Source: an uncultured virus (IMG/VR IMGVR_UViG_3300043777_000336)
Lineage: Duplodnaviria > Heunggongvirae > Uroviricota > Caudoviricetes
IMG/VR virus record: IMGVR_UViG_3300043777_000336
Direction: 5' to 3' (one strand)
Length of the DNA: 64,000 nt
The notes beneath the pieces are model-generated. The model saw only the letters and a list, made by a program, of their open reading frames with translations, was not told the origin of the DNA and searched no databases. Below, one piece after another: positions 1,172-55,547 of the stretch (positions within the stretch are counted from its first letter, which is position 1; every line of letters starts with the position of its first letter). The translations under genes and the position numbers were made by a program.

Positions 1172-1519
1172 ATGGCTCGACGACGCTACCATCGCCGCAA
1201 TCCGACTCAGATGATGCAACTCTCGACCGTGGATACCGTCGTCTTGGGCGGCGTCATGTTGGGCATCATCGGTGCCGTGGTTCTCGTCGCTGCGAATGCC
1301 TCGGCATCGACGAGTGCTCCTACGTCTGCACCTACGCCGGGCGGTGGCGGAGGTGGTAGTGCGACCGCACCTGCGCCTGCACCCCCTGGCTCGACGGCAC
1401 CTGTACCGTCGGCAACAGGACCAGCGAATCAGACGGTCCAGTACGCGCCAGGACAGTGGGCGACCTACGACAGCAATGGTAACCTCGTCGGCAACACGAA
1501 CTTTCCGCCCGGCGGATGA
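1172..1519 (+). CDS. NP-leader single-TM protein
   Basis: MARRRYHRRNP-TQMMQLSTVD-TM, then S/T/P/G-rich tail; TAGTCT 6 nt before ATG. Confidence 0.8.
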   Translation: MARRRYHRRNPTQMMQLSTVDTVVLGGVMLGIIGAVVLVAANASASTSAPTSAPTPGGGGGGSATAPAPAPPGSTAPVPSATGPANQTVQYAPGQWATYDSNGNLVGNTNFPPGG

Positions 1520-1905
1520 CCCCCGGTACGGTCCGGTTCGAGAACGGCGCGACCGTGCGCGTCGACATCGTGAGCGAGCCGACCGAAATGGCGTACGGGC
1601 TCATGGACCGGACTTCGCTGCCCGAAAACGCTGGGATGCTCTTCTGGTTTGGGTCACGTGAAGATCACGTCTTCTGGATGCGCCGTACGCGGATACCACT
1701 TGATCTCGTCTTCGTGGATCGTGACCTTCGCGCAGCCCGGGGACCGCTCTTTGGAGTCGTCGTAGGTGTCCTCACCCTCGAGCCCCTTGATGAGCGACAG
1801 CACTCGATAAAACGGCCTTCGACGTGCGTGCTTGAGGTCAACGGCGGCTGGACGGCCCGACACGGGGTCGCTGTAGGGCAGAAGGTGACCGTTTCCGCGG
1901 ACTAG
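1516..1905 (+). CDS. DUF192 family protein
   Basis: GLMDRTSLPENAGMLF, FWMRRTRIPLDLVFVD, VLEVNGG motifs. Confidence 0.85.
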   Translation: MTPGTVRFENGATVRVDIVSEPTEMAYGLMDRTSLPENAGMLFWFGSREDHVFWMRRTRIPLDLVFVDRDLRAARGPLFGVVVGVLTLEPLDERQHSIKRPSTCVLEVNGGWTARHGVAVGQKVTVSAD

Positions 1906-1969
1906 GGTAGTCTCCTAAGCACGGCCGCGAGAGCGGTCAACCCTCTGTTTTCGACCCCAGGAGAGACCC

Positions 1970-2284
1970 ATGAGAAGGCCGACCGTCAAGAGCGCAGCGT
2001 ATTACCGCGCCAATCCTTTGAGCACTGTCGAGATGGTGGCTGGAGGGCTCGTTGGAGCTGCCATCCTCGGAATTGGTGGCTACCTGCTCTATCAGCACTA
2101 CAACGCGCCAGCTACGACCGCTACGACGGCTCAGCAGCTTGCGCAGCCAGGCCAGTTCGGCAGCGCTAACCCGGCTCCGTACGGCTACGACGCGAACGGC
2201 AACCCGTACCCGTCGCAGAATGCCGCTGACGCCGCGAACCTCACGGGCATCTACACGGTGCCTCCGATGCCCGCGGGCGGTTGA
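1970..2284 (+). CDS. NP-leader single-TM protein
   Basis: YYRANP-LSTVE-MVAGGLVGAAILGIGGYLLY; AGGAG RBS. Confidence 0.8.
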   Translation: MRRPTVKSAAYYRANPLSTVEMVAGGLVGAAILGIGGYLLYQHYNAPATTATTAQQLAQPGQFGSANPAPYGYDANGNPYPSQNAADAANLTGIYTVPPMPAGG

Positions 2285-2315
2285 TTCGCTCACGTCGACG
2301 TGAAGCTGAATCGAC

Positions 2316-2651
2316 ATGGACCCGAACGCAGCTTGGGAGCGTTGGATCATCGCCGTCGCCGACGGTGATCTGCCGGAGGCGCGCGATGCGCACACCGATC
2401 TCACGAGTTGGCTTCGCAGCGGAGGGTTCGAGCCAGATTGGACGCCGCGGGAACGTGCGCAGTTCATGGCATGGCGTGGAGGGCGACGGCTCCCACGCGC
2501 GCCACTGCCCTTGGGTCCGGATGGCGAAGAACCCGCTCGACGGAGAGGGCTGGTTTCGCATTGCGGTAGGAGTCGTGGCCGTTGTCGCGGTTGGAGCAGC
2601 GCTTTGGAGCAAATCGCAAACCGGTTGAGGTCGGGAGGAGAACTTCGATGA
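2316..2651 (+). CDS. Small phage protein (MDPxA...WLxxGGFxP type), overlapping an NP-TM ORF in another frame
   Basis: MDPNAAW...LTSWLRSGGFEPDW resembles 20216..20404 MDPDANL...LNKWLHNGGFLPEAW. Confidence 0.6.
   Translation: MDPNAAWERWIIAVADGDLPEARDAHTDLTSWLRSGGFEPDWTPRERAQFMAWRGGRRLPRAPLPLGPDGEEPARRRGLVSHCGRSRGRCRGWSSALEQIANRLRSGGELR
2521..2628 (+). CDS. Minimal NP-leader TM peptide (35 aa)
   Basis: MAKNPLDGEGWFRIAVGVVAVVAVGAALWSKSQTG. Confidence 0.55.
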   Translation: MAKNPLDGEGWFRIAVGVVAVVAVGAALWSKSQTG

Positions 2652-2914
2652 AAAAGAAGAGGAGCACTGGGTTGGTCATTCACATCGAGCCGGACGCGTA
2701 CGTCGTTTGTACGAAAGGCGGTCGGAAGATCAAAAAGTGTCGGACCATGGAGTCGGCGAAGCGATTCGCCGCCAGTCACATGGAAAAGACCGGGGGTCGT
2801 AGCCTCAGCGTGAAAGGTGCTCGATTCCGGTACGTGCCGGCGGCGAAAGTGCAGGCACGAGCGACGAAGAAGAGGCCGGCGAAGCGGCGCGCGAAGAGGC
2901 GTGGGCGTCGGTAG
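2648..2914 (+). CDS. Highly basic small protein (possible nucleic-acid condensing protein)
   Basis: GGAGG RBS; K/R-rich, ends ATKKRPAKRRAKRRGRR. Confidence 0.65.
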   Translation: MKKKRSTGLVIHIEPDAYVVCTKGGRKIKKCRTMESAKRFAASHMEKTGGRSLSVKGARFRYVPAAKVQARATKKRPAKRRAKRRGRR

Positions 2915-2916
2915 TC

Positions 2917-3276
2917 GTGACCAGGAGGAATCCATACGTCGACGCGCCCAGTGAGGCACTCATCAACCGAGCTCGAAGGATGTTGGGAGCGGGCGCTTCG
3001 GTTCAAGATGTCCACGACGCCTTTGCCGAAGACGGCGTGCCCGAGGAGCAGATCTACCTCGCGATTCAGGCAGCGGAGCAGCTATTGCGCAATCCCATCG
3101 ACGATATTACCGCTCTGGAGCTCATCGTCGGCGGTATTGCAGCGGTCGTATTGACCGGGTTCGGCGGCTACCTCGTCTACACGGCTCTGAATCCGCCGGG
3201 GAGTACTCCTCAGGACACGGCAACGACGCTCGGGGAGGCTTCGTCTTTGGCCACGCTTACGGCGGTGGTGATGTGA
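2917..3276 (+). CDS. NP-leader TM protein with a helical cargo between two NP motifs
   Basis: MTRRNP...~50 aa...LLRNP-IDDITALE-TM ending GYLVY. Confidence 0.8.
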   Translation: MTRRNPYVDAPSEALINRARRMLGAGASVQDVHDAFAEDGVPEEQIYLAIQAAEQLLRNPIDDITALELIVGGIAAVVLTGFGGYLVYTALNPPGSTPQDTATTLGEASSLATLTAVVM

Positions 3277-3304: not shown

Positions 3305-3808
3305 ATGAACCTCAGCAATATTCGTCGCGGCTACGGCGAACGAGAACGTCTCGCGATGGCCGGGATGCTTCGACGAGCCGGCTATCCGGAGCCAGGACTG
3401 ACCGCCAAACAACTTCAGCAAGAGGGAATGGATCCGAACGAACTTGCTTGGCGTCTTCGAACCGGACAAACGATCGATCCTAGCGGCGGCGGACCCATGT
3501 GCCGTAATCCTCTCGGTCTCTCGGGTACCGATCTCGTTCTCATCGCAGGAGGTGTCGCTGCGTTCGGCTTCGTAGGGTTTCTCATCTGGAACCAGATGCA
3601 GGTCAACCAAGAGCAGGCGACGGCCGCCGCGAACGGGTATCCCGGACCCGTCATCCAGCCCGCTTCCGCCGCACTCAATCAGTCCGGCGTTCTCGCGTCG
3701 AGTCAAGTCCTCCTCGGTGCGTCGAACATCCTGCCGCCCCCGGGGACGCCCGTAGTGCCACCCGTCTACGTCCCTGGTGCTCCTCCGCTTCTGGTGGCGC
3801 CCACATGA
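3305..3808 (+). CDS. Cargo-fused NP-TM protein
   Basis: ...GGGPMCRNP-LGLSGTD-TM ending GFLIW. Confidence 0.8.
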   Translation: MNLSNIRRGYGERERLAMAGMLRRAGYPEPGLTAKQLQQEGMDPNELAWRLRTGQTIDPSGGGPMCRNPLGLSGTDLVLIAGGVAAFGFVGFLIWNQMQVNQEQATAAANGYPGPVIQPASAALNQSGVLASSQVLLGASNILPPPGTPVVPPVYVPGAPPLLVAPT

Positions 3809-4215
3809 AAGAGCCTGTCTTCATCTCGGTCCGTCCCGGTGGACGCACGGTGCGCTATGAAAAGATTGGCCGGCGCTGGGAAGTCATGCGTAGTAATCCA
3901 ATCGAGGTCACGGGCATGGACTTGTTACTGATTGCGGGCGGTGTCGTTGCGCTCGGAGTTGTCGGATATTTCATCTGGACTGCCACGCAGAATTTGCAGC
4001 CTACGGTAAACGCGTCGGGCGGCGAAGGAAACGCACCTGAAGCTACCGATAGCTCGCAGGGACAATTCATCAACGTCAACGGTCAGCCTTTAGGGCCGTC
4101 CGCGAGCACTTCAGGAATTGATTTTTCTCAGCTGCAACCGGTAGCGCCAACTGCGCCAGCTCTCAGTCCTCTACTATCCAGAGGACCCCCTCCTCCGCTA
4201 CCAGCAGGATTTTGA
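3805..4215 (+). CDS. Cargo-fused NP-TM protein
   Basis: ...EVMRSNP-IEVTGMD-TM ending GYFIW. Confidence 0.8.
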   Translation: MKEPVFISVRPGGRTVRYEKIGRRWEVMRSNPIEVTGMDLLLIAGGVVALGVVGYFIWTATQNLQPTVNASGGEGNAPEATDSSQGQFINVNGQPLGPSASTSGIDFSQLQPVAPTAPALSPLLSRGPPPPLPAGF

Positions 4216-4688
4216 TGAAGACTGAAGCGCAAATACGACGATGGGAGCGAAACCCGCTCCCGCTCGGACTTACCCCCGTCGAGCTCGGACTGATTGCGGC
4301 AGGCGTCGGCGTCGCGGGCTATATCGCCTACCTGTTCTATAGTGCGTCACAAGCCGCATCCGTGCCCTCGAGTCCCACCATCAGCGTTGCCGCTGGAGAA
4401 CCGGGTACGGTTCAGGCCCCCACCTGGACCGGTGCCATCCTCGGCTCTGGTTATTTCTGGGGCGATCAGGGTAACGTGCAGCCACCCGCGCTGCTCGGCA
4501 CGGTCAAAGCTCTCGCGATGACCTCGTACGGCCTCGCGTCGACGATCACCGGCACGGTCTACATCCCCCTATCGCCGGCCGGCAATGTTTCGTTCTTCGT
4601 GACCGGACAGACGCCCGAGGATCCAAATAGCGGTGTCTCGTACGGACAGGCCATCACGCTACCTCTTTCGTATGTGAGCGCGGCGTAG
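4215..4688 (+). CDS. NP-leader TM protein with beta-rich C-terminal domain
   Basis: RRWERNP-LPLGLTPVE-TM ending GYIAYLFY. Confidence 0.8.
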   Translation: MKTEAQIRRWERNPLPLGLTPVELGLIAAGVGVAGYIAYLFYSASQAASVPSSPTISVAAGEPGTVQAPTWTGAILGSGYFWGDQGNVQPPALLGTVKALAMTSYGLASTITGTVYIPLSPAGNVSFFVTGQTPEDPNSGVSYGQAITLPLSYVSAA

Positions 4689-4696: not shown

Positions 4697-5593
4697 ATGA
4701 AAGTTATCCAAGACGATTTGTGGCTTTGCCAAGACTGCACCATCTACTCGGTCAATGGGGATACGTCTGGTATCGACTCCGAGGAGCGCGAGAAGGAAGT
4801 CGTCGAAGGTGTCAATGCGCTCGGGCCGCATCTCGTACCGGACTTCGACTCCGAGACGAACGAAGGTATCGAAGAGTTCTCGCGGCGACAGTGCGACGCA
4901 TGCGGTACGCGCCTCGGCGGTTCACGGGACCGGTTTGCGATCCTGGGTGAAGAGAGTCCCGAGGACGATCATCAGCGACACCGTATCGGGGCTCGACGGC
5001 CGCGAAAGTCACGGGAAAATGTGAAAGTCATGAGCGCAGAGAATCCTATTTCCGATCTGTCATGGGGGGAGATTGCGCTTATCACCGCTGGTGTTGGCGT
5101 CCTGGGGTACATCGTTTATTCCCTCTGGAATGCGACCGACTCGTCCGGAGCGGATGCGGCTCAGGCTTGGCAGGAGTCGCAGGCCACAGGTGCATCGGGT
5201 TTGCCGCAGGGTGTTGGGCAGTTCCAACAGATTGCCGGAGGGACTGCTCCCGTAGGAGGGACGGACTGGGCTACACAACAAACTTACGGGCCAGGGAATC
5301 CTGTCACAGTCGAGACGATTTCAGCATCAGACAGTCGCGTTTGCGGAAACGGAGGAACGACAGGATATTGTGATCAAGATCAGGGCAATACGACCGTTCC
5401 GTCTGTCGGCGATACCGTTGCTATCATTCTCCAAAATGAAGCCACAGGAAATACGTATCCGTTCCATGGTACCGTGCAATCGACAGACGGACAGACAGTC
5501 ACGTTCGTAGATTCGCAGGGCATCGGTTGGAATTATCCTCTTTCTTTCGTTCTGTCGGGTCCTGCCCTTGTCGCAGCGTACGTTGGTCTATGA
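4697..5593 (+). CDS. NP-TM protein with Zn-finger cargo and C-terminal domain
   Basis: CQDC...CDAC cargo; MSAENP-ISDLSWGE-TM ending GYIVYSLW. Confidence 0.8.
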   Translation: MKVIQDDLWLCQDCTIYSVNGDTSGIDSEEREKEVVEGVNALGPHLVPDFDSETNEGIEEFSRRQCDACGTRLGGSRDRFAILGEESPEDDHQRHRIGARRPRKSRENVKVMSAENPISDLSWGEIALITAGVGVLGYIVYSLWNATDSSGADAAQAWQESQATGASGLPQGVGQFQQIAGGTAPVGGTDWATQQTYGPGNPVTVETISASDSRVCGNGGTTGYCDQDQGNTTVPSVGDTVAIILQNEATGNTYPFHGTVQSTDGQTVTFVDSQGIGWNYPLSFVLSGPALVAAYVGL

Positions 5594-5799
5594 AAACCGA
5601 CGCGCAAATCCTTCGCGGACAGATCCCTTGCTGCAAATGTGGCAAGGCGATTGCTGAGAACGCGGCGCGCATGATCTTGTACGCCTCGCCTCTGATTTTT
5701 TCGGCCGCCTGCATTCCGTGCGCTCAGAACGAAGCCGGGCTGAATCATGAGCTCGTGAAATTGCCGGTTCCGAGGCCAGGAACGATTCTGAGGCCGTGA
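5590..5799 (+). CDS. Small Zn-finger protein
   Basis: CCKC...CIPC; ATGA coupling. Confidence 0.55.
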   Translation: MKTDAQILRGQIPCCKCGKAIAENAARMILYASPLIFSAACIPCAQNEAGLNHELVKLPVPRPGTILRP

Positions 5800-6113
5800 T
5801 GCGCTCTCGCCGAAACCCCGACAGCATCCTCTCGCAAATCGCGGTCAACACGACCCAGGACATCGTCCTGGCCGCGCTCGGTGTCGCGATCGTCGGCGGT
5901 GTCATCTACCTCGTTTACAAGAAGTCGACGGATGCCGGTACGTCGGTTGGCGAAGCTCTTGCGACCGAGGCGTCTTTTTGGTCGAGCACGCTCTTCCCAG
6001 GGCAGGGCGCGCAAGTCGAGCAGACTACGCCCTACGGCACGCTCGCTGAACAAGGTCCCGGCGCTTCCGTCCAGGGTGGTGCAGCTGTCACGGAAGGAGG
6101 CGGGTCGTCGTGA
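5796..6113 (+). CDS. NP-leader single-TM protein
   Basis: MRSRRNP-DSILSQIAVNTTQD-TM; close paralog of 6334..6639. Confidence 0.8.
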   Translation: MMRSRRNPDSILSQIAVNTTQDIVLAALGVAIVGGVIYLVYKKSTDAGTSVGEALATEASFWSSTLFPGQGAQVEQTTPYGTLAEQGPGASVQGGAAVTEGGGSS

Positions 6114-6337
6114 GTCCGCTCGGACAGGCCATTTTGGATCAGTGCGCCGTGCTTGCGGCGCTCAAGCCCTATTGCGACGAAGCGCCGACCGCCGCGGACG
6201 CGAAGCAGGAGGAGATCTCTGACGAAGACCTCACCGAGTGGCAAGCCCGCGCCAAGGTCGCGCGCCCTGCGTGGAAACGTGCGCTCGCGCGGCTCATGGA
6301 CATGTTGGACGGATACTCGGGGGAACCCACCCCATGA
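6110..6337 (+). CDS. Hypothetical protein
   Basis: GTGA/ATGA-coupled ORF between two NP genes. Confidence 0.55.
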   Translation: MSPLGQAILDQCAVLAALKPYCDEAPTAADAKQEEISDEDLTEWQARAKVARPAWKRALARLMDMLDGYSGEPTP

Positions 6338-6639
6338 AGCGCAAGCGTAATCCAACGACTGTTCTTCAACAGGTCGAGGTGAATCTCATCCAAGATGCCG
6401 TGCTTATCACGGCCGGCGTCGTGATCGTGGGCGTCGTCGGCTACCTCATCTACCAGAAGCTTCAGAGTGCAGTGCCTACCGTCCGAAATACTCTGCCTCT
6501 CCTGTTGTCAACGACTCCGGGCGTGGACCCGCTACCGCCTATCGACATGCCGGGTCGAGGAAGCGAGACCGTGCCCTTCACCAGCGACGCGAGCGGGACC
6601 ACCAGCGGGCCCGACAACACTCTCGTCGCGATCGGTTGA
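6334..6639 (+). CDS. NP-leader single-TM protein
   Basis: MKRKRNP-TTVLQQVEVNLIQD-TM ending GYLIY. Confidence 0.8.
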   Translation: MKRKRNPTTVLQQVEVNLIQDAVLITAGVVIVGVVGYLIYQKLQSAVPTVRNTLPLLLSTTPGVDPLPPIDMPGRGSETVPFTSDASGTTSGPDNTLVAIG

Positions 6640-8094: not shown

Positions 8095-8534
8095 ACCCGA
8101 ACCGTCCGCCGATTCAGCGCATCCAGCAGCTCATTGCGCTCGCGACGGACCCGGCCGCGAGCGAAGAAGAGGCGCGCACCGCGGCGCTCCAGGCCGCCCG
8201 CAGCATCCGACAGCACGGGTTGCAGCTGACGCCACAGGAAGCAGCTTGGGCGGCGGAGGATGGGCACTATGCTCCGGTCCAGCCTCAGCACCCATACGGC
8301 ACCGCCGTGACGCCTCAGAGCCGACAAATGGGCTCAGGAACGCCTCGGTTACCTTCCCCACACTCCACCGCGCTCGCGCGACCGTCATCCTGGCAAGCGG
8401 AGTCACAGCTGGGACGGCCCGGCGCGCCACGATTTCACGTCTTGAATTTGGACTTCAAAGACGAGGTCGCCGAGGCTCGTCCGAATTTCGCATTTCCTCA
8501 GGCGCTTCTGAACGCACTCAGGAGATCGACGTGA
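8091..8534 (+). CDS. DUF2786-like domain protein
   Basis: RIQQLIALATDPAASEEEARTAALQAARSIRQHGL pattern. Confidence 0.65.
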   Translation: MNPNRPPIQRIQQLIALATDPAASEEEARTAALQAARSIRQHGLQLTPQEAAWAAEDGHYAPVQPQHPYGTAVTPQSRQMGSGTPRLPSPHSTALARPSSWQAESQLGRPGAPRFHVLNLDFKDEVAEARPNFAFPQALLNALRRST

Positions 8535-8851
8535 GCGGACTGAAGCTCCCAAGCAATTGGGAAGAGAATATGCAGTACCTCGCCCAGGTGGGACACTTTC
8601 TCGGCGGCGCGCTCGTCGTCGTGGTCGCAGCGATGTTCTCGATCGTGCTAGGTGCCGGGTGGCTTCCCATCCTCGTCGTGCTCGGCATCGGTGTTGTCGC
8701 GGCGGCCGTGAAGGAGTTCTACCTTGACCGGCGCCCACCCGAGAGCGATTCGCTCGCGAACAGCGTCATGGACTTCGAGTTTTATATGCTCGGTGCTGCT
8801 GTTGCGGTGGGGCTCGTTGCGTTCGCGATGTTCCTGCTACACCGGTATTGA
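8531..8851 (+). CDS. 3-TM membrane protein (HFxGG...KE..D type), paralog of 9537..9962
   Basis: WEENMQYLAQVGHFLGG...KEFYLD...DSLANSVMDFEFYMLG. Confidence 0.75.
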   Translation: MSGLKLPSNWEENMQYLAQVGHFLGGALVVVVAAMFSIVLGAGWLPILVVLGIGVVAAAVKEFYLDRRPPESDSLANSVMDFEFYMLGAAVAVGLVAFAMFLLHRY

Positions 8852-11010: not shown

Positions 11011-11484
11011 TCAGTACCCCGGGTTCGAAGGACTGACGGGTTGCACGGGTGTGGGCGTCGGTACGGGAGCGACGGGAGCGCTCACAACCGTCGAGACGGT
11101 CGACTTGATCGACCAGTACGCGAGCACGCCGAGGACGACCGTGGCTCCGCCGACGACTGCTGCCGCTTCCCAGGGGGAGAGCCCTGCTCCACCGACGGCG
11201 ACGCGCGACGAGTAGTCGAACAGCTCGGGGGAGGTGGGGTTCGCTCCTCGATGGTATGGGTCGGCGGGGTCGGGATCGTGGCGATGGATCTCGTAGTAGA
11301 GCTCCGTGGCTTTGCGCTGGTGGTAGCGCGCCTGCTTCATGTCGCCGGCTTCCTTAAATGCGAGGGAAGCCTGCGCGTGGAGCTGACGCGCTTCCCGCAG
11401 TTGCTTCTCGGAACCTGTGCGACGCCCCTGGTCAGCTCGAAGCTCGGCGCGAAGAGCGAGCGAGTGCGCTCGACGGAGGCTCAT
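11011..11484 (-). CDS. Cargo-fused NP-TM protein
   Basis: Helical cargo, HRGANP...LSPWE-TM ending LAYW, P/T-rich tail. Confidence 0.7.
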   Translation of the reverse strand: MSLRRAHSLALRAELRADQGRRTGSEKQLREARQLHAQASLAFKEAGDMKQARYHQRKATELYYEIHRHDPDPADPYHRGANPTSPELFDYSSRVAVGGAGLSPWEAAAVVGGATVVLGVLAYWSIKSTVSTVVSAPVAPVPTPTPVQPVSPSNPGY

Positions 11485-11686: not shown

Positions 11687-11714
11687 ACTCTCAGGAAGGG
11701 ACATTATGGCGAGT
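11687..11714. promoter_or_regulatory. Candidate 11-6-11 tyrosine-recombinase core site overlapping the recombinase start codon
   Basis: ACTCTCAGGAA-GGGACA-TTATGGCGAGT; arms are imperfect inverted repeats (7/11). Confidence 0.4.
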
Positions 11715-42706: not shown

Positions 42707-42907
42707 GTGAAGAAACCAAACGACAAATCCAATACGGGCCGATCCGACATTGATAGGTCCGACATCCTCCGACTCGCTGCCGAGTCGGGGATTGACCCAC
42801 GCACCGTAAAGCGCGCGATCGATCACGGCGTCGACTCGCTTCGAGCCGAGGTCGACCGACAGAGACTTCGCGACGCCGCCGCGAAGCTCGAGCTGAACAT
42901 CGGATGA
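42707..42907 (+). CDS. Small HTH protein, paralog of 57124..57294
   Basis: DILRLAAESGIDPRTVKRAIDHGVDSLRAEVDRQRLRDAA. Confidence 0.75.
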   Translation: MKKPNDKSNTGRSDIDRSDILRLAAESGIDPRTVKRAIDHGVDSLRAEVDRQRLRDAAAKLELNIG

Positions 42908-47051: not shown

Positions 47052-47315
47052 ATGCGAAACTACCGAGGCAACCCCATCTCGACCGGTCAGAAGGTCGCCA
47101 TCGCCGCAGTAGGCGTCGTCGCGGTCTCGCTCATCGGCTACCTCGTCTACGAGTCGACCGCCTCCGCGAGCACGTCAAGCACGGGAACAGGAGCCACAGG
47201 AGCGACCGGCGCGACCGGGAGTGCCGTCGGACTCACTGGAGCAACCGGGATGGGACGACTCCAAAGAGCTCCCGGTCCGGTAGGTTCGTCGGCGCCGGTT
47301 GGCGTTGGCGGCTGA
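47052..47315 (+). CDS. NP-leader TM protein with GAT repeats
   Basis: MRNYRGNP-ISTGQK-TM ending GYLVY; TGATGATGATG. Confidence 0.8.
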   Translation: MRNYRGNPISTGQKVAIAAVGVVAVSLIGYLVYESTASASTSSTGTGATGATGATGSAVGLTGATGMGRLQRAPGPVGSSAPVGVGG

Positions 47316-47386: not shown

Positions 47387-47545
47387 ATGAACATCTATTT
47401 GGCGCCGCTGGTTCTCGTCATCGCGATACTTCTCATGCTCTTCGGCAACGCGAAGGCGCAGCAGTTCACTCCGGCCATGTACTGGCTCGGCTGGGCATTC
47501 ACGCTCTACGAGTTCAGCTCGAAGGTCGCGCTGTCAATTCACTAG
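47387..47545 (+). CDS. Small 2-TM protein
   Basis: MNIYLAPLVLVIAILLMLFG...; GGGAG RBS. Confidence 0.55.
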   Translation: MNIYLAPLVLVIAILLMLFGNAKAQQFTPAMYWLGWAFTLYEFSSKVALSIH

Positions 47546-48194: not shown

Positions 48195-49013
48195 ATGGCG
48201 AAGAGCTCTGTCAAGGCCACTGCAATACGTCGCGCCCGGAAGTTCGAGGACGTCGCCCGGTACTACTACGATCACGGCGACTTGGCCCAGGGCGACCAAT
48301 ACCAGGCTCGAGCCAATCAGTATTGGCGGGACGGCGGAAAGCCTCAGATGATCAAGGCTCTCCAAGGCAGCTCGGCGGCGAACCCCGTCCAGTACGACTA
48401 CTCCGAACGGACCGGACGCTACGAACGCGTAAGTCCGCCCGTCCCTCCGGTGGGTCGAATCGACTTTCACCGCATACCACTCAATCAGGGCGGCTACGAC
48501 CGACGCGGCGAATACTTCGGTCAGGGTGCTCCTCTCTACGAATGGTACGACGAGGAGTCTCAAAGAAGTTACTTCACCCGAGCGAGCTCTCGCGCCCAAG
48601 CCAAAACGTACTTCGAAAATGTACGCCGACATCTTGTCGAATACGGCGGCCACGGATGGTGGGGACAGAAGAACCCAGGAAAAGGAAATCCCATGCGAAC
48701 CTATCAAGGCAATCCCATCTCTGACGGTCAGAAGATCGCCATTGGCGCGGCAGCCGTCGCGGTACTCGGACTCGTCGGCTACTTCATCTACCAGCAGACG
48801 TCGTCCTCATCCTCGCAGGCCGCCGCGGGCAGTGGAGGAGGCACCATTTCGAGCGGCCAGCAGCCCTACCAGCTCGGTACGTCGACATCGACGAGTATGC
48901 CGGCCGCAAGCGCTCAGGGAACCATCGACTACTCGACCTCGACAGCGTACGCGCCGGGCTACTCAGCCGCGAACCCACCTCCTCCCGCAGCGGTCAACCT
49001 CGGCGACGTCTGA
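48195..49013 (+). CDS. Polyprotein-like NP-TM protein with two cargo domains
   Basis: SAANP, QKNP, KGNP, QGNP; cargo 2 contains LNQGGYDRRGEYFGQGAPLY; TM ending GYFIY. Confidence 0.8.
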   Translation: MAKSSVKATAIRRARKFEDVARYYYDHGDLAQGDQYQARANQYWRDGGKPQMIKALQGSSAANPVQYDYSERTGRYERVSPPVPPVGRIDFHRIPLNQGGYDRRGEYFGQGAPLYEWYDEESQRSYFTRASSRAQAKTYFENVRRHLVEYGGHGWWGQKNPGKGNPMRTYQGNPISDGQKIAIGAAAVAVLGLVGYFIYQQTSSSSSQAAAGSGGGTISSGQQPYQLGTSTSTSMPAASAQGTIDYSTSTAYAPGYSAANPPPPAAVNLGDV

Positions 49014-49022: not shown

Positions 49023-49592
49023 GTGTCGTTCAAGCACAAGAGCACCGTCATCTATAAGGTCCATCCCGAGCCGGGTGGTGGCGAGCGTTCGGGCCACGTT
49101 AGCGTTCGGACCGATCGACACGCGAAGGGCGGCTGGTGGACCGTCAGCAATAAGGCCATCGTCCAAGCCCTTGTCGACGGCAGCTATTTGAACAGCTGGA
49201 TGATCGCAGACGATGTCGTCATCGAAGGAGACGACGACGGCGTCTTGTTTATTACATACTACAAGAGAGGTAGAGAAGAGCCACTCTACCAACTCGAGTA
49301 CGAACGACACCATCACATCGACGAACCGTCCAAAAGCTTCTTCGGGAGCGAACCTTCCAAACCAAACCCAACCTCCGATTCATCGACTCTCCAGACCGTA
49401 GGCTGGATCGCGTTCGGCGTTACGGTTGTAGGGCTCGCCGGGTGGTGGCTCTACTCGACCTCGAAAGCGAACACGGCTGCGACGCAGGCTCAGAACGTTC
49501 TACTACCCGCACAGCCCGCGCAGACGCCGCAGACGCAAGATCAAGTTCCACCGTTCATTCCATCTGACGTGTCACAGCCGATTGGAGTTTGA
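49023..49592 (+). CDS. Cargo-fused NP-TM protein
   Basis: ...SKPNP-TSDSSTLQ-TM ending GWWLY. Confidence 0.75.
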   Translation: MSFKHKSTVIYKVHPEPGGGERSGHVSVRTDRHAKGGWWTVSNKAIVQALVDGSYLNSWMIADDVVIEGDDDGVLFITYYKRGREEPLYQLEYERHHHIDEPSKSFFGSEPSKPNPTSDSSTLQTVGWIAFGVTVVGLAGWWLYSTSKANTAATQAQNVLLPAQPAQTPQTQDQVPPFIPSDVSQPIGV

Positions 49593-50008
49593 CCATGCGT
49601 AGAAGGTCTCGACGAGAGTACGACCGAACAAATCCGACCGGTTCCCCTCGGGCCGGCCTCTACGTTGCGCCAGGCCCGCTCTCAACCGGCGAGAAGGTCG
49701 GTCTCGTCGCGGCGGGTGCTGCTGTGCTCGGAATCGTCGGCTACCTCATCTACAAGAGCTCGTCCTCGACAGCCGCTGCGACCCCACCCGCCACGACCGC
49801 AAATCCAACGGCAAACTACCCCGTTGTGCAGACGCCGATCGCCCAGCCTCCCAACATCCTTGCCGGCGGCCCCGTCAATCCGACCGGCGGCCAGATCTAC
49901 GACCCGAACTTCGGTGTAACAGGTCCGACGAGCGAAACGACAATCGGCGGCCAGGTCTACGATCCGAACCTCGGCGGCAGCGGCGCCATCATGCCGAGCG
50001 GAGGCTAA
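49589..50008 (+). CDS. NP-leader TM protein
   Basis: RRRSRREYDRTNP...LSTGE-TM ending GYLIY; GGQxYDPN twice. Confidence 0.8.
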   Translation: MTMRRRSRREYDRTNPTGSPRAGLYVAPGPLSTGEKVGLVAAGAAVLGIVGYLIYKSSSSTAAATPPATTANPTANYPVVQTPIAQPPNILAGGPVNPTGGQIYDPNFGVTGPTSETTIGGQVYDPNLGGSGAIMPSGG

Positions 50009-50011
50009 ATC

Positions 50012-50581
50012 GTGGCCCGAACTGTCGTCATGCTCGGTCGTGGTGTATCCGTTGAGAGAGCTGCTGGATCAAAGGACTGGTACGTCTATCACACACGTCG
50101 AACCGGCATGTGGACATGGACCCCAAATGAACGGATCTCAGGCCCCTTTCGAGACAAACAACAGGCCATTCTCAGCGCGCAAGACATCAGTAGCCGAGTC
50201 CCGATTCCGTGGGGAGAACCTGACTATAAATACGTCCCGGGCGATGGTCCTCATGGCGATCCACGCCACGCATACCCCGGCGACGACGTTCCACTGACGA
50301 TAGGAGAACCCATGCGTCGATATCGCCGAAGAAACCCTCTCACCTCGACTGAGGATCTCGTCATCGCCGGCTTCGGGCTCGCCGTGGCGGGGCTCATCGG
50401 CTACGCCATTTACTCGAAGGGACAAGCGACGGCAGCTGCACCTGCAAACCCGAACATCTCGACGGCGCCGAGCCAGGCCCAGCAGGAAGCCTACGATACC
50501 TGGGTCATGCAGCAGATTCAGCTAGGAAACGTCTCGCCGGCTCAAGCCTCAGCCGCCGGAGCGATTCCGTCGGGAGGCTAA
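50012..50581 (+). CDS. Cargo-fused NP-TM protein with internal start at 50312
   Basis: ...GEPMRRYRRRNP-LTSTED-TM ending GYAIY; AGGAG before internal ATG. Confidence 0.8.
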   Translation: MARTVVMLGRGVSVERAAGSKDWYVYHTRRTGMWTWTPNERISGPFRDKQQAILSAQDISSRVPIPWGEPDYKYVPGDGPHGDPRHAYPGDDVPLTIGEPMRRYRRRNPLTSTEDLVIAGFGLAVAGLIGYAIYSKGQATAAAPANPNISTAPSQAQQEAYDTWVMQQIQLGNVSPAQASAAGAIPSGG

Positions 50582-50584
50582 GTC

Positions 50585-51100
50585 GTGCCTGAGCTATTCA
50601 AGTTCGCCAAGTGGAGTGACGTCCTCGCATACGCACGTAGTGGCGGCCCGCTCTACTACCAGGCACCGTTGGACGCTCGACCGACGAAGCTCTATCCAAA
50701 GACCTATAGCGGGTGCGAATCATGCTACTTGGTTCGCGCCCGTACGATTCGTATCTGGCCGTACGGATCGGTTGGCCGTAGTCGAAGACGTACTTCCGAC
50801 CCGTTCACTGCTGACGTCGATCACCTAGAGCGGTTCAGCGCCCCTGAAGAGCCGATGCTTGGCGACGACTCTTTTCGAAACCCACTCACACAGTCCACGG
50901 ACGCCGAGCACCTCAAGATGACCACCATGGTCGTCGGTGGACTCGCTGCCGCGGGCATCGTCGGCTACATCATCTACAAGGTCAGCCAACCTGCAACGCC
51001 CGTCGTCTCCGCAGCGATGCCGCCCGGCATCCTCGGACCGGGTGGATCGACGACGCCAGTGGGTCCCGTAGCGAACCCGACCGGACCACAAGGAAGCTGA
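50585..51100 (+). CDS. Cargo-fused NP-TM protein
   Basis: ...SFRNP-LTQSTDAE...TM ending GYIIY. Confidence 0.8.
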   Translation: MPELFKFAKWSDVLAYARSGGPLYYQAPLDARPTKLYPKTYSGCESCYLVRARTIRIWPYGSVGRSRRRTSDPFTADVDHLERFSAPEEPMLGDDSFRNPLTQSTDAEHLKMTTMVVGGLAAAGIVGYIIYKVSQPATPVVSAAMPPGILGPGGSTTPVGPVANPTGPQGS

Positions 51101-51102
51101 CC

Positions 51103-51324
51103 ATGAAAAGACGAACAAGTCGCAATCTCGCCCACTGCTGCGAAAACCCACTCACCACGTTCACGACCGAACAGGCCATCTACCTCACGGTCGGCGGCAT
51201 CGTGGCGGCTAGCGTCTTCGGCTACCTCCTCTACAATGCCGGCAAGAGCACACAGCAGATCGCCGACCTGCAAGCCTACCAGGCCGGAACGTTCGGACAG
51301 GCCACGACGACCGCGGGAGGCTGA
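51103..51324 (+). CDS. NP-leader TM protein
   Basis: MKRRTSRNLAHCCENP-LTTFTTEQ-TM ending GYLLY. Confidence 0.8.
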   Translation: MKRRTSRNLAHCCENPLTTFTTEQAIYLTVGGIVAASVFGYLLYNAGKSTQQIADLQAYQAGTFGQATTTAGG

Positions 51325-51325
51325 C

Positions 51326-51574
51326 ATGGCGAATCTCGGTTACCCCATCGAAGTCGGTTCTCTAGGCGCGGTTCTGGGTATCGGCGCGGCCATTCTCTCG
51401 AGCGGTGGCGACTCGCGCAAGATCGCGCAGATCGGCGGCATGACCGCGGCTGGCGCCGGACTCGGTATGGCCCTCGACCCCGAAGGCGGCGAAGCCGAGG
51501 CCATCGCGGGAACACTCATCGCGATCGGTGGCATCATCGCGGCCGTCTTCATGGGGAACGGGGCGCGATCGTAG
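51326..51574 (+). CDS. Gly-rich multi-TM protein
   Basis: GxxxG-rich hydrophobic segments; GGAGG RBS. Confidence 0.65.
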   Translation: MANLGYPIEVGSLGAVLGIGAAILSSGGDSRKIAQIGGMTAAGAGLGMALDPEGGEAEAIAGTLIAIGGIIAAVFMGNGARS

Positions 51575-52376: not shown

Positions 52377-52679
52377 ATGGCACGTCGGTTTCGGAAGCCA
52401 AACCCGCAGCAAGAAGACGGGATCTCTACGAACACGATCTTGATCCTCGGCCTAGGGACCGCCCTACTCGGTGCCATCGCGTACGCCGTGTACCAGATCA
52501 GCCAGACCAACGCTGCCATCGCCGATGCTTCACAATCCGCAGCCGGAGTCGGCGAGCAGATCGGATCCGCGGCAGTAAGTGGGCAATCGGCCGCAGATCA
52601 GATTGCCGCTCTGAATCAACAGATTCAAGACATCCAAAACAGTGCCCTCTACCAACGATTGAACCAGGGGCTCCAATGA
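52377..52679 (+). CDS. NP-leader TM protein with coiled-coil tail
   Basis: MARRFRKPNP-QQEDGISTN-TM ending AYAVY. Confidence 0.8.
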   Translation: MARRFRKPNPQQEDGISTNTILILGLGTALLGAIAYAVYQISQTNAAIADASQSAAGVGEQIGSAAVSGQSAADQIAALNQQIQDIQNSALYQRLNQGLQ

Positions 52680-52930
52680 GACGACGAAAGAACCCTATGG
52701 CCGTTCCGGTATACGACGCGGCTATTCTCATCGGCATTGGCGTGGTCGTAGGTGGTGTCGCGTACTTTCTCTACTCCAAGAGCCAATCAAACTCGTTGGT
52801 TACCGACACCGGAGGACCGCAGCAGGTACCCGGCGCATCTCCAGGCGTAGTCAACCTCGGCCAAGGTGGGACGAGCGGAAACCTACCACTCGGTCAAGAA
52901 TCGACTCAGACGGGCCCCGCAGGGACGTGA
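52676..52930 (+). CDS. NP-leader TM protein
   Basis: MRRRKNP-MAVPVYD-TM ending AYFLY. Confidence 0.8.
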   Translation: MRRRKNPMAVPVYDAAILIGIGVVVGGVAYFLYSKSQSNSLVTDTGGPQQVPGASPGVVNLGQGGTSGNLPLGQESTQTGPAGT

Positions 52931-53013
52931 TGCGTCGCCGCAACCAATCAGGGCGCTACTTCAACTACCGCCAGCATGGTCCCAATCCTCTCGTAGCGGT
53001 CGCGGCCGGGTGA
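52930..53013 (+). pseudogene. Truncated NP-family ORF (27 aa)
   Basis: MRRRNQSGRYFNYRQHGPNPLVAVAAG* stops at the start of the hydrophobic segment. Confidence 0.4.
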
Positions 53014-53029: not shown

Positions 53030-53479
53030 ATGGAAACGTGCGTAAAGTGCGGACGACGCATCGGACTGAACGGACTGCCTGAGGGCGTGGGAGCAACCGC
53101 CGTACCGGGCGCAAAGCCTGGAAAGCCTCTCTGGTCTCTCTACGCACCCTGGTGGGCTTTGACCGTGCCCTACAGCTGGCGTTTTTTCGGCATTGGACCC
53201 AAGACCATCTACGGAGCTCCCGCATGGGGTCCGACCACGAACGGTCTATGGGTTCGACCTGAGCCGACAGGAGGTCTATTTGGACCACTCGGCGGCATGC
53301 CGTGGGTTTGGTATCCTTCTCCCGGATCTTCGATGCTCATTCACGGGCGCCTCGTAGCTTCCGGTCCCATTCCTAAGTCCGGCGTCGTCACACAGACGCT
53401 TCCCGGCTACTGGGTCAGCGGCGGAGGTCTGACGCCAAACGCTCCGCCTCCACCTGATCCTGCATACAACCCATCATGA
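53030..53479 (+). CDS. Trp/Pro/Gly-rich WVWYP-domain protein
   Basis: GLWVRPEP...PWVWYPSPG. Confidence 0.7.
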   Translation: METCVKCGRRIGLNGLPEGVGATAVPGAKPGKPLWSLYAPWWALTVPYSWRFFGIGPKTIYGAPAWGPTTNGLWVRPEPTGGLFGPLGGMPWVWYPSPGSSMLIHGRLVASGPIPKSGVVTQTLPGYWVSGGGLTPNAPPPPDPAYNPS

Positions 53480-53703
53480 CCGCTCCCGCCACCCTCATCC
53501 CTGCCGGCGTCGCGGGTCTTGCTGGCGCCGCGTACGCGTACTCGGAACACGAGAACGAAGAAGAGACTCTCGTACTCGCCGGCAGCGCGGCTGCTGTGGG
53601 ACTTGGGGCCTCGTTGCTCTACAACGAATCCAACTATTGGGCTGGGATCCCGCTCATTCTGGCCGGCGGTCTCGCCGCGATGATGGCACTGAAGAGGAGA
53701 TGA
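53476..53703 (+). CDS. Small Gly/Ala-rich 3-TM protein
   Basis: Three hydrophobic segments, KRR end. Confidence 0.65.
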   Translation: MTAPATLIPAGVAGLAGAAYAYSEHENEEETLVLAGSAAAVGLGASLLYNESNYWAGIPLILAGGLAAMMALKRR

Positions 53704-54221
53704 TCATGGGACGAATTGCGGTGAGACAGGCTGGCGTTGGGAGACGACCGCGCGGCCTCGGACAGGTGCTTCCCACGTGTGCGAGCCTCGACGCGTCGCA
53801 GAACATCCCGCAGGGAATTCTCGTTGCCGGTGGAGGTCTCGCGACGCTCGTAGGGGTCATCGGCGCCATCTTCTCCGACCAGTACCGCAAGCAGTTCGCT
53901 ATCGCGGCGGGCGCAGGCATCGTCTCGAGCTTCATCGGCGGGCTTTGGGCGGGTAGCACGTTCACGTTCTCGCCGCAGTGTACCGGACCCGGCATGCCGT
54001 CGCTCGGCGCCGCCTCGGTCAATCCAGACCAGTCCACGCCCGCAGGACAGCAGCCCGGACTCTTCGGACCCTCCACGCCCACGCCATCAGTGCTGCAAGC
54101 CACAGCTGCCAACCCTCAGGTCACAGACGCTCAAGGCAACGTGTGGTCTCAACCGACTCCACCGCAACCACTCACGCCCGCGCAGCAAGCCCAGATGAAT
54201 TACGCTGCCAGTTTGCCGTAA
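53700..54221 (+). CDS. RGLGQ-leader 2-TM protein, tandem paralog of 54232..54744
   Basis: RRPRGLGQ-VLPTCASLD...PQGILVAGGGLATLVGVIGAIFS...PQCTGPG. Confidence 0.8.
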   Translation: MIMGRIAVRQAGVGRRPRGLGQVLPTCASLDASQNIPQGILVAGGGLATLVGVIGAIFSDQYRKQFAIAAGAGIVSSFIGGLWAGSTFTFSPQCTGPGMPSLGAASVNPDQSTPAGQQPGLFGPSTPTPSVLQATAANPQVTDAQGNVWSQPTPPQPLTPAQQAQMNYAASLP

Positions 54222-54231
54222 AGAGGAAACC

Positions 54232-54744
54232 ATGCTCAAGCGAACACGAAGAGGTTTCGGTCAAACGCCTGGCGCGACAGCCGGAGCGATCATGACCCCG
54301 GGCTACGCGCCACCAACGCCCCCAACGCAGTCGACCGTGGGCTTGCCCACGTGCGCGAGCATCGACTACTCGACGACCGTTCCACAGGGTATCCTCATCG
54401 CTGGAGGGGGTATCGCCACGCTCGTCGGTGTCATTGGCGCGATCTTCTCTGAAGACTACCGGAAGGAATTCGCCGTCGCGGCAGGTGCCGGGCTCGTCTC
54501 GAGCCTCCTCGGTGGTATCTGGGCAGCAGCGTCGATGCCACAGCTCATCCAGAACCAGTGGAACCCGCAGTGTACGGGTCCCGGGGTCGCATGGCTCGAC
54601 GGCGCCTCGGTGAATTCGGACCAGACGACGCCACCAGGGCAGGTTCCGACTGGCACGAATTGGGGTCAGAGCGTAGGAGGCGCAGATCCGAACTTTTACG
54701 CCAACCCGGCCAACCAAAGCACAACGTCGTCCGCTGGCGTCTAG
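54232..54744 (+). CDS. RGFGQ-leader 2-TM protein
   Basis: RTRRGFGQ...LPTCASID...PQGILIAGGGIATLVGVIGAIFS...PQCTGPG. Confidence 0.8.
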   Translation: MLKRTRRGFGQTPGATAGAIMTPGYAPPTPPTQSTVGLPTCASIDYSTTVPQGILIAGGGIATLVGVIGAIFSEDYRKEFAVAAGAGLVSSLLGGIWAAASMPQLIQNQWNPQCTGPGVAWLDGASVNSDQTTPPGQVPTGTNWGQSVGGADPNFYANPANQSTTSSAGV

Positions 54745-54847
54745 CTATACACACTTAAACGACCTCTGGATCAAACTGGGTCTGGCGTTCGTCGTCGCGG
54801 TCATGGTGATTGCGGCCGTCTATTTGAGCGGCCGAGGAAAGTAGAAC

Positions 54848-55207
54848 ATGCATCCCATCATTGGACTCGGACTCGTCGGACTCGGACTCGTTGGAGTCGC
54901 TCAAGCCAAAAAGCCGTCTATGGCTCTACCTGTCTTCCGGCCCGGCTTCGGCTGGTTCAAGATAGGGAGGCGACCAACTCGCGCACCTCAAAGCGGAAAC
55001 GGTTCGTGGCTTCAGACCTCCATCGGTTGGGTCTGGTATCCCGCTCCCGGGACGATGCTGCTCATGAACGGGAACGTGTGGGTCGCCAACACGATGACGA
55101 CACCTGCGCCTCCTCCTGGCGCGAATGGCGGGAGCTGGCGACCGGTGACAGCAGGGCCCGGTCCCAACCGATACTGGACGTGGACACCGACACATCGAGG
55201 AGGCTGA
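54848..55207 (+). CDS. WVWYP-domain protein with hydrophobic N-terminus
   Basis: IIGLGLVGLGLVGVAQA; GSWLQTSIGWVWYPAPG. Confidence 0.7.
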   Translation: MHPIIGLGLVGLGLVGVAQAKKPSMALPVFRPGFGWFKIGRRPTRAPQSGNGSWLQTSIGWVWYPAPGTMLLMNGNVWVANTMTTPAPPPGANGGSWRPVTAGPGPNRYWTWTPTHRGG

Positions 55208-55208
55208 G

Positions 55209-55547
55209 ATGAGAAGGGCAACCTACGATCGAGAAAATCAATTGTCGACCACGGAAGGGGTGCTCATCGCTGCCGGTGTCGTCGTTTTGATCCTTGTGGG
55301 CTACGGCATCTACATCTCGGCCAGCGGCGCAAGCAGTCTCATGAACGCTTTCATCGCGGCCAACCCAGGAGTACCCGCTACCTCGGCGAATCTTCAGGCG
55401 TGGCTTCAGACCCCTGCGGGGCAACAGGCTCTCACGACGAATGCGCCGTCCTATCTTCCACCGCCGACACCTCAGACTCCGCCCGTCACACCTCCGGTTG
55501 CCCCTACTTCGTTCATGGGACCGGCTTACGGCGGATCTCCGGTGTAG
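55209..55547 (+). CDS. NP-family variant (NQ) TM protein
   Basis: MRRATYDRENQ-LSTTE-TM ending GYGIY. Confidence 0.75.
   Translation: MRRATYDRENQLSTTEGVLIAAGVVVLILVGYGIYISASGASSLMNAFIAANPGVPATSANLQAWLQTPAGQQALTTNAPSYLPPPTPQTPPVTPPVAPTSFMGPAYGGSPV

Follow-up and report, generated by a model that had tools for sequence, protein, structure and literature searches.

PRD1 and PM2 have genomes of 10–15 kb, which encode a jelly-roll capsid protein, no tail genes, and several small, mostly single-pass membrane proteins whose first site of insertion is the cytoplasmic membrane of the host; during assembly of the PRD1 type, the cytoplasmic side of this membrane ends up facing the capsid. How membrane-containing viruses select the proteins of their lipid layer is, to our knowledge, poorly understood, and the classical models include no known common sequence tag. 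Tripartite sorting signals are found in the LPXTG/sortase and PEP-CTERM/exosortase systems, and FlhB-type switch proteins carry the NPTH autocleavage motif. Self-cleavage between a conserved Asn and Pro, beside a membrane helix, is described for the anti-sigma factor RsgI, and at Asn42-Pro43, with an acidic side chain polarising the Asn, for reovirus mu1 and aquareovirus VP5 (PMC10328401). Here we describe the NP-TM family, encoded in 64,000 nucleotides of DNA from an uncultured soil virus (IMG/VR IMGVR_UViG_3300043777_000336; this whole stretch is called the window), in which Asn-Pro (NP), mostly in an Arg-rich arm, stands before a predicted transmembrane (TM) helix.

A preliminary description, made from the same sequence, had listed at least 20 such paralogues in two clusters, taken NP for the end of a basic leader, and proposed a new protein sorting or processing system. 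We find a multigene family, specific to these viruses, of proteins predicted to cross the membrane once and to share a conserved module of ~45 residues; in our assessment there is about an even chance that this module is an anchor that acts as a common address.

Common module and selection on Asn-Pro

The window has a G+C content of 58–66%. At the starts listed below, its open reading frames (ORFs) encode proteins of 27–298 amino acids (aa), all with the layout noted before: the 20 listed ORFs, the short copy at 2521 among them, and the variant with NQ at 55209 translate as described. Profile A1 was made from 20 aligned core segments, with 2521 left out of training; its scan of the window (1215 stop-to-stop frames of at least 30 aa) gives 21 matches at E ≤ 6.8e-6, namely the 20 training sequences and the untrained 2521 copy (E 6.8e-6). 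The next-best match, at 53476-53703 (E = 0.023), shows TM likeness only. The profile census finds 21 copies and no more, hence the earlier member list is complete; beyond the window, genomes of relatives and protein clusters also match.

The shared module of ~45 residues opens with an Arg-rich arm and Asn-Pro; a [ST]xx[DEQ] box then leads into the Gly-rich TM helix, after which comes the collar GYxx[YW]xxxQ. Attached to the module are N-terminal domains that vary between copies, and tails that are uncharged and rich in Ala, Gly, Thr, Pro, Ser, and Gln. Among the 20 segments of A1, Asn is invariant, Pro and one Gly are conserved at 90% or above, and the mean column identity is 27%. The copies had been called otherwise divergent; this does not hold, the whole module being homologous, with a mean column identity of 27–30%. 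Other generalisations hold in part. The spacer box [ST]xx[DEQ], said to be usual, is present in 16/21 copies (the pattern match of 2521 falls after the helix and is excluded); the G[YF]xx[YW] end of the TM helix, noted for most copies, is seen in 14/21; and the mostly Arg/Lys-rich stretch, taken as at least two Arg/Lys within ten residues before Asn, is likewise seen in 14/21. NP as the end of an N-terminal leader has to be abandoned for nine of the 21 copies, where it lies at residue 31–173.

The strongest hydrophobic 19-residue stretch of each copy has a Kyte–Doolittle mean of 1.56–2.70 and starts 5–26 residues after Asn. NP is upstream of the helix in 20/21 copies, the exception being 55209 with NQ; in contrast, it is found 3–30 aa upstream in 0/19 hydrophobic segments of other window genes, taken from crude home-made gene calls. 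NP accounts for 0.36% of dipeptides, and the alternative that it precedes TM helices by chance is not borne out. Conservation is a more telling test than frequency here, because the copies are paralogues.

Genome G001 (IMG/VR; 127,529 bp; rated 100% complete, with direct terminal repeats) shows synteny over the entire window, at 67–95% nucleotide identity, and has 24 profile matches in three groups (23 copies in our own scan, 22 with NP). In profile A2, which combines 41 window and G001 copies, Asn is present in 41/41, and Pro and one Gly are again conserved at 90% or above. Compared with 1.84 billion cluster representatives, A2 matches 393 proteins at E ≤ 0.001, 31 of them at E ≤ 1e-10. Among the best 150 of the 393, four are repetitive Gly-rich proteins with multiple matches; Asn is present in 145 of the 146 others, the remaining one being truncated before it. 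The residue after Asn is Pro in 138 of these 145 relatives, Gln in four, Ala in two, and Thr in one.

Position tables were compiled from the 145 relatives with a located Asn for the arm and tail, and from the 125 of these that could be anchored on GY for the helix and collar. The resulting short linear motif is [RK]-[RKE]-N-P-[LIT]-[STG]. The ten residues before Asn contain 444 Arg vs. 83 Lys over the 145 relatives, with 3.6 basic and 0.7 acidic residues per sequence. The spacer after NP is variable in length and is followed by the capping box [ST]-G-[ETQ]-x. The helix of ~20 residues has Gly at −8 in 104/125, at −3 in 110/125, and at 0 (the GY anchor); the collar has Tyr at +1 in 120/125, Tyr or Trp at +4 in 123/125, and Gln at +8 in 84/125. 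Tails have a median length of 53 residues, are made up of Ala, Gly, Thr, Pro, Ser, and Gln, and contain 0.4% Lys, 0.9% Arg, 1.3% Glu, and 0.2% Cys. Asn lies at residue 20 or earlier in 88/145 relatives and at residue 22–175 in 57/145, and the distance from NP to the helix end is 12–55 residues, with the mode at 22 (145 relatives).

The window copies use AAC 11 times and AAT 10 times for this Asn, and each of the four Pro codons five times, with a similar spread in G001. This free use of synonymous codons indicates selection on the amino acids, not on a DNA site, and a DNA-level motif is ruled out. Together with the conservation of Asn and Pro given above, it bears out the specific selection on NP that had been suggested. 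Identity was also compared over 13 clear window–G001 orthologue pairs, excluding the 8/21 copies with no clear one-to-one partner:

core module: 300/464 identical residues, 65% (13 orthologue pairs)
N-terminal parts: 178/588 identical residues, 30% (13 orthologue pairs)
tails: 277/822 identical residues, 34% (13 orthologue pairs)

The module is conserved far better than the parts attached to it.

Member genes

The family members in the window are as follows (coordinates, strand, product):

1172..1519, +, 115-aa protein (MARRRYHRRNP...) with the conserved Asn in position 10; E 4.4e-15
1970..2284, +, 104-aa protein with the conserved Asn in position 15; 81 aa align with the G001 orthologue at 57% identity
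2521..2628, +, short copy of 35 aa (MAKNP...) that stops soon after the helix, E 6.8e-6; G001 counterpart 51% identical
2917..3276, +, 119-aa protein with the family NP in position 59 (translation, profile)
3305..3808, +, 167-aa protein with a conserved N-terminal domain of 67 aa and NP in position 68; orthologue 61% identical over residues 12–167
3805..4215, +, family member, 136 aa, NP at residue 31 (profile, G001 orthologue)
4215..4688, +, 157-aa protein with NP in position 13; the TTG at 4212 is another possible start
4697..5593, +, 298-aa protein made up of a Cys-rich N-terminal domain, NP in position 116, the helix, and a C-terminal part of 157 aa; G001 orthologue 50% identical over residues 1–189
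5796..6113, +, 105-aa protein from the GTG at 5796 (ATG at 5799), with NP in position 7
6334..6639, +, family member, 101 aa, NP at residue 6 (profile)
11011..11484, −, 157-aa protein encoded apart from both clusters, with NP in position 82 and a spacer of 26 aa to the helix, E 2.2e-11; G001 orthologue 71% identical from NP onward
47052..47315, +, 87-aa protein of the gene that opens cluster 2; modelled below
48195..49013, +, 272-aa protein with an N-terminal part of 172 aa before NP in position 173; database protein P0042 has the identical sequence
49023..49592, +, 189-aa protein with a conserved N-terminal domain and NP in position 115 (KPNP); orthologue over residues 1–154
49589..50008, +, 139-aa protein (ATG at 49595) with NP in position 15, separated from the LSTGE capping box by an insert of 17 aa
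50012..50581, +, family member, 189 aa (GTG 50012) or 89 aa (internal ATG 50312) (profile)
50585..51100, +, family member, 171 aa or 81 aa (internal ATG 50855) (profile)
51103..51324, +, family member, 73 aa, CCENP (profile); orthologue 79% identical
52377..52679, +, family member, 100 aa (profile, G001 orthologue)
52676..52930, +, family member, 84 aa (profile, G001 orthologue)
52930..53013, +, probable 27-aa remnant, MRRRNQ...GPNPLVAVAAG and two stop codons, by eye; profile score not significant
55209..55547, +, family member, 112 aa, NQ for NP, E 8e-15

The N-terminal parts of 3305, 3805, 4697, and 49023 are kept in G001, and that of 4697 matches phrog_3034; they are therefore real domains. 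The 2917 protein has a second arm-like TRRNP at residue 5 (2917-2934), ~50 residues before the family RNP and with no helix after it.

For 50012 and 50585, Shine–Dalgarno-like sites precede both the GTG start of the ORF and the internal ATG, which lies 7–8 residues before NP. Database gene calls take the short forms (P0003 for 50012, P0089 for 50585), and the alignment with the G001 orthologue of 50012 starts only at residue 101, the internal Met; judging from these sites, each of the two genes may yield both a long and a short form of its protein. A general use of an internal Met just before NP was considered and rejected, as Met is found within 12 residues in 17/57 long relatives vs. ~11 expected, which is no clear enrichment.

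The ORF at 52930, noted before as a truncated copy, has two stop codons just inside the helix, with no continuation in any other frame. It is probably the remnant of a family member, recognised by eye; its profile score of 2.3 bits lends no significant support. Also rejected was a C-terminal P-x-G-G as a second signal in several members, as it represents the Shine–Dalgarno sequence of the next gene (GGAGG, GGGAGG) in the last codons:

1500-1519, 49990-50011, 50560-50584, and 51305-51330: P-x-G-G ends that are ribosome-binding sites of tightly packed next genes

Distribution and similarity searches

G004 (73,439 bp, 64% G+C, rated 100% complete) has four profile matches and, by inspection, ~6 copies, including a variant with NG; these copies flank, on both sides, a gene block that is common to G004 and G001. 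G002 (116 kb, 67% G+C) has no family member, only C-terminal anchors with a similar helix and no arm. Ten of the protein clusters were looked up and come from metagenome collections only; the named ones are 'hypothetical', except for one labelled DUF533/YebE membrane protein.

Searches of family libraries gave little. No Pfam family is above the cut-off for the 21 window proteins (best E 0.0057, below the cut-off); among 67 relatives, Pfam matches only DUF6582, in one N-terminal domain. In PHROGs, searched with 20/21 window proteins (all except 2521), the only match is that of the N-terminal domain of 4697 (phrog_3034). All NCBIfam matches of ten window members and ten relatives, sorting-signal models included, are below the cut-off, and PADLOC matches 0/21 window proteins. 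This agrees with the earlier statement that the family corresponds to no described family or signal.

No relative of a family member is found in GenBank phages, and none in viral contigs by single-protein scans with P0004 and P0039; the A3 profile scan of viral contigs returns G001 only. In metagenome contigs, the A3 scan gives 11 loci, i.e., four short contigs with true members and seven with TM-only likenesses or nothing. Megablast of window positions 1-25000 against plasmids gives no match, the PDB sequence search with the A4 profile gives 0 matches, and the ESM Atlas has no usable match by features, its structural neighbours coming from a low-confidence model. The A4 genome scan finds only small contigs of four metagenome-assembled genomes (MAGs; two Acidimicrobiales, one Binatia, one Polyangiaceae). 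One of the four has one family member on another small contig, and among 401 genomes of its class the family profile finds the same MAG only (1/401, at most 17 candidates scored per genome). A literature search aimed at such a family turned up no description, which does not establish its absence from print. None of the libraries and collections searched describes the family.

Structure model and topology

The AlphaFold 2 (AF2) model of the 47052 protein, a monomer computed from a 45-sequence alignment, has a single helix at residues 11–42 (32 residues), with a predicted local distance difference test score (pLDDT) of 92–96 over residues 11–30. The cap consists of S10-T-G-Q13 and is directly preceded by an extended segment that holds N7-P8; the mean pLDDT is 71 for residues 1–10, and no folded domain is modelled around NP. 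N-capping boxes are an established element of helix capping, and by this model the [ST]xx[DEQ] of the preliminary description is such a box, NP itself not being the cap. In 49589 and 11011, insertions lie between NP and the capping box, thus NP belongs to the arm.

By the positive-inside rule, the arm, NP, and any N-terminal domain are predicted to be cytoplasmic, with the uncharged tail outside, and the helix would act as a signal-anchor that stays uncleaved. Its small-residue face, together with the stripe of aromatic residues and Gln, suggests specific helix packing.

The virus lineage and a conserved, possibly jelly-roll-like protein

Replication genes in G001 and G004 include those for a primase, helicases, a Sak4-like protein, and exonucleases. 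Terminase, portal, HK97-type capsid, and tail families are absent from the 51 G001 and 41 G004 proteins scanned, the sole tail-type matches being collagen-like or Ig-like stretches. G001 and G004 have a colinear block of six proteins in common. The best-conserved block protein, of 413 aa in G001 (L007:4087-5328, minus strand), has >400 homologues, on contigs of up to 198 kb, no Pfam domain, and no match in GenBank phages. Its AF2 model (m8d6a350bf461, pLDDT 82.7) is almost all beta, with two strand groups, each with a short helix, and has the look of a double beta-sandwich. In VIA-align, the model matches the SPV1 capsid protein at Z 5.4, below the trust mark of Z 8, followed by HHIV-2, HCIV-1, PRD1 P3, P23-77, FLiP, and PBCV-1 at Z 4–5. 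In a repeat comparison, PRD1 P3 is the first and best full-length match (Z 5.3, root-mean-square deviation 6.3, 166 residues; again below Z 8) and is aligned end to end (model 21–412, chain 22–384). Foldseek against PDB and BFVD gives no usable match for this protein, with TM-scores ≤ 0.12 for nearly all rows. The PDB sequence search with the G001 protein of 568 aa gives chance-level matches only.

A large tailless jelly-roll virus with an internal membrane is plausible on these grounds, and the lineage may be one of very large tailless bacterial viruses, with complete records of 73–127 kb; a literature search on prokaryotic jelly-roll viruses turned up nothing obviously on viruses of such size, which does not establish their absence from print. 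The relatives without tailed-phage hallmarks and the conserved jelly-roll-like protein make the earlier assignment of the family to membrane proteins of the virus, destined for the virion or the host membrane, a reasonable one.

Tyrosine integrases are encoded in the window (11706-12809, +) and in G004 (L034:14863-15981, minus strand), hence these viruses may be temperate; no integrated copy is found in the genomes searched.

Candidate enzymes and partners

An S8-like peptidase (43978-45291; Pfam Peptidase_S8, 30.4 bits) is encoded just upstream of cluster 2. Its distribution compared with that of the family is:

window: S8-like peptidase present, NP-TM family present
G001: S8-like peptidase present (85% identity), NP-TM family present
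G002: S8-like peptidase present (71% identity), NP-TM family absent
G004: S8-like peptidase absent, NP-TM family present

The peptidase is present without the family in G002 and absent from G004 with its ~6 copies; therefore it is not the dedicated enzyme of the family and is rejected as a cognate protease. No other candidate enzyme co-occurs, and the expected association with a specific protease is thus not supported. The window also encodes AAA (PF00004) ATPases at 14324-15901 and 32570-34231 and a Mg-chelatase/ComM-like ATPase at 23732-25258; by BLAST of the G001 frames, the three have no counterpart in G004 or G002, and therefore do not track the family.

When the G001 frames of at least 80 aa are compared with G002 and G004, i.e., over three genomes only, just three genes are present in G001 and G004 and absent from G002: those for a GH25-type lysozyme, an HNH endonuclease, and a basic block protein of 145 aa. 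The latter (P0279 family; G001 L007:7544-8065, minus strand) has 34 homologues and no Pfam family, and its gene in G001 directly follows a family member. In G004 (L033:16928-17581), it forms the rear part of a fusion protein, in which a helix like that of the family comes first and is followed by ...ERDNP... and a basic stretch. As judged from these three genomes, the 145-aa protein may be a partner of the arm. Modelling the NP-TM core together with this protein and the putative capsid protein gave a score of 0.00 and no verdict, in a run that had no controls.

Other genes

Membrane-protein genes make up ~30 of the ~110 genes of the window. They include a paralogous pair at 8246-8851 and 9537-9962, with QYL.Q.GHFLGG in common, and further genes at 51236-51574, 53476-53703, 54232-54744, 42929-43294, and 47387-47545; several Gly-rich multi-helix ones are inside cluster 2. 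The ORF at 3-908 (+), which runs off the 5' end of the window, contains a unit of ~28 aa (PLNLHWRTF...VTLPLVEE) twice in tandem; close to the C-terminus of its product come a helix and then a tail that is strongly basic and includes ANP, a mirror of the arm-NP-helix order.

Two paralogous small helix-turn-helix-like genes, at 42707-42907 and 57124-57294, each head a gene run and have a near-identical stretch, DILRLAAE..IDPRTVKRA...SLRAEVDRQRLRDAA. A Ro60/TROVE protein and an RtcB RNA ligase are encoded at 40531-42261 and 57358-58869, respectively; the former is 45–50% identical to those of Gordonia and Mycobacterium phages. The Rfam scan of the window at the gathering threshold finds no Y-RNA-like or other RNA family, and the tRNA scan finds no tRNA gene; G001 has two tRNA-Arg genes (L010:14791-14959), with anticodons GCG and ACG.

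Interpretation

The module is most likely a common anchor or address, rather than a proven cleavage signal. It would then serve, as its context suggests, as the 'address' of a diversified set of proteins; the Gly face would pack the helices against one another or against a viral membrane protein, and the arm with its Asn-Pro turn would be a docking peptide for one common partner at the cytoplasmic face. In this way the family would populate the lipid membrane of a large tailless virus and help to tether it. As the cytoplasmic face is the capsid-facing one in PRD1-type assembly, a common arm could tether the membrane proteins to the shell or to an assembly factor, and a role in a viral lipid membrane is made plausible by the lack of tailed-phage hallmarks together with the jelly-roll-like protein. 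A bolder proposal, which we hold to be tentative and rather unlikely, is that of a new virus-encoded sorting signal, i.e., a docking tag, possibly self-cleaving, that recruits dozens of proteins into the internal membrane of large tailless jelly-roll viruses and ties this membrane to the shell. Of the sorting or processing system first proposed, the selection on NP, the viral membrane proteins, and the lack of a described signal stand; cleavage and routing find no support.

Several points weigh against a common address in a viral membrane. Localisation, partners, and virion content are inferred from sequence and context. The two clusters that hold most copies are not near the conserved block, and this position makes action in the host membrane equally possible. 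G002 has a protein of the 413-aa type (43–44% identity) and no family member, hence the family is not essential to that particle type. None of the jelly-roll matches reaches the trust mark of Z 8, and double beta-sandwich enzymes such as PHM, which are unrelated, score equally. No packaging ATPase family is found among the scanned block proteins, and a simple pattern search of frames of at least 80 aa, in part of each genome (G001 23–62 kb, G004 27–47 kb), gives no credible Walker A motif. The wide-search counts (Pro in 138/145) are somewhat biased towards NP, because the A2 profile contains it. Finally, the gene calls are home-made, and some start codons are uncertain.

Action in the host membrane rather than in a particle (superinfection exclusion, lysis timing, envelope remodelling, or surface decoration), with the anchor inherited by duplication and NP being a structural turn, is a real possibility, if on balance an unlikely one. 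It would fit the placement of most copies off the conserved block, beside a glycosyltransferase, the S8-like peptidase, and other membrane proteins; the low-complexity, fast-evolving tails (34% identity vs. 65% in the core), as expected for surface-exposed parts; the candidate capsid protein of G002, found there without the family; and the encoded integrases, which make lysogenic-conversion functions plausible. However, a plain anchor leaves the invariant Asn across hundreds of clusters unexplained, as even the glycines of the helix vary; some G001 and G004 copies are within the conserved block or directly flank it; and no holin, defence, or exclusion family is above threshold in Pfam, PHROGs, or PADLOC. 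It is improbable that NP is a processing site, at which self-cleavage by the Asn side chain, or a cytoplasmic protease, would release the arm or N-terminal domain and leave a Pro-first anchored protein. Asn is the sole invariant residue, with Pro next to it in most relatives; an acidic residue or Gln is often found within 4–8 residues after NP; and the Asn-Pro self-cleavage of RsgI and mu1/VP5 provides a precedent, although the documented cases need a folded turn or helix end, while NP lies in a short extended arm of the model. Furthermore, Pro is replaced by Gln, Ala, or Thr in 7/145 relatives, and no protease co-occurs: G002 has the S8-like one and no family member, and in G004 it is the reverse. 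NP is on the Arg-rich, presumably cytoplasmic side and is often internal, and its distance to the helix end ranges over 12–55 residues, thus the module is unlike a classical N-terminal leader or the substrate of a fixed-geometry membrane-embedded peptidase.

A known export signal (Tat, Sec with signal peptidase, lipoprotein, or prepilin), with the tail as the secreted mature protein, can hardly be expected here, and the position tables contradict a Tat, Sec, or prepilin signal; as to Sec cleavage after an AxA-type c-region, the helix length and the aromatic collar speak for an anchor instead. The layout of a basic n-region, a hydrophobic stretch, and small residues is similar, with Ala, Ser, or Thr common at +9 to +13 after GY, and RRNPL loosely resembles the Tat motif RRxFL; but there is no invariant twin arginine (Arg 85 and Lys 16 at −2; Arg 47, Glu 42, Lys 19, and Pro 11 at −1; of 145), and the consensus Phe and Lys are replaced by the near-invariant Pro and by Ser, Gly, or Thr. 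The module follows N-terminal domains in 57/145 relatives, the hydrophobic stretch of ~20–23 residues carries an aromatic collar (the helix of the model has 32 residues), and the 'signal' is better conserved than the 'mature' part. With Cys at 0.2% of the tails there is no lipobox; the prepilin pattern G-F...E and a conserved Gly-Phe/Met before the helix are absent, and the distance from NP to the helix end is not that of a prepilin (12–55); all matches to NCBIfam sorting-signal models are below their cut-offs.

The motif is compact and lends itself to mutational analysis, and is present in 6–24 copies per genome and hundreds of sequence clusters. If it is an address or a self-processing tag, it would represent a new sorting principle and a handle on an uncultured virus group; if merely a conserved anchor, it still defines an undescribed, widespread family that merits a profile in public libraries.

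Comparison with known systems

The family resembles Tat signal peptides and uncleaved Tat signal-anchors in the Arg-rich N-region followed by a Gly-rich hydrophobic stretch, and differs from them in having no invariant RR, with Asn and Pro invariant instead, in the often internal position of the module, and in the long, strongly hydrophobic helix. With LPXTG/sortase and PEP-CTERM/exosortase it shares the combination of a short motif, a membrane helix, and a basic cluster on divergent, often low-complexity passengers. However, the arrangement is mirrored here, being on the N-terminal side, and the motif is on the predicted cytoplasmic side, as is the basic cluster, beyond an outer-face transpeptidase; moreover, no gene for a cognate enzyme is found, and the NCBIfam sorting-signal models stay below cut-off.

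RsgI, mu1/VP5, and FlhB/SctU (NPTH) are similar in the conserved Asn-Pro (here, Asn in 145/146 and Pro in 138/145 relatives). In RsgI, it is likewise beside a membrane helix, and in mu1 it is near the N-terminus of a membrane-active viral protein (PMC10328401); their sites are in folded domains that position the Asn, whereas here the model has a short Arg-rich arm, and there is no homology. An oligomer or a partner could, however, supply a folded context for NP.

As in PRD1 and PM2, several small membrane proteins are virus-encoded, the capsid fold being weakly supported here. The membrane proteins of PRD1 and PM2 are not known to have a common module or motif or to be a paralogous expansion, and the genomes compared here are far larger (73–127 kb), with no sequence match to any GenBank phage. 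Set against other virus-encoded small membrane proteins, the family appears unusual in its copy number, its single common module, and its invariant, predicted cytoplasmic Asn-Pro.

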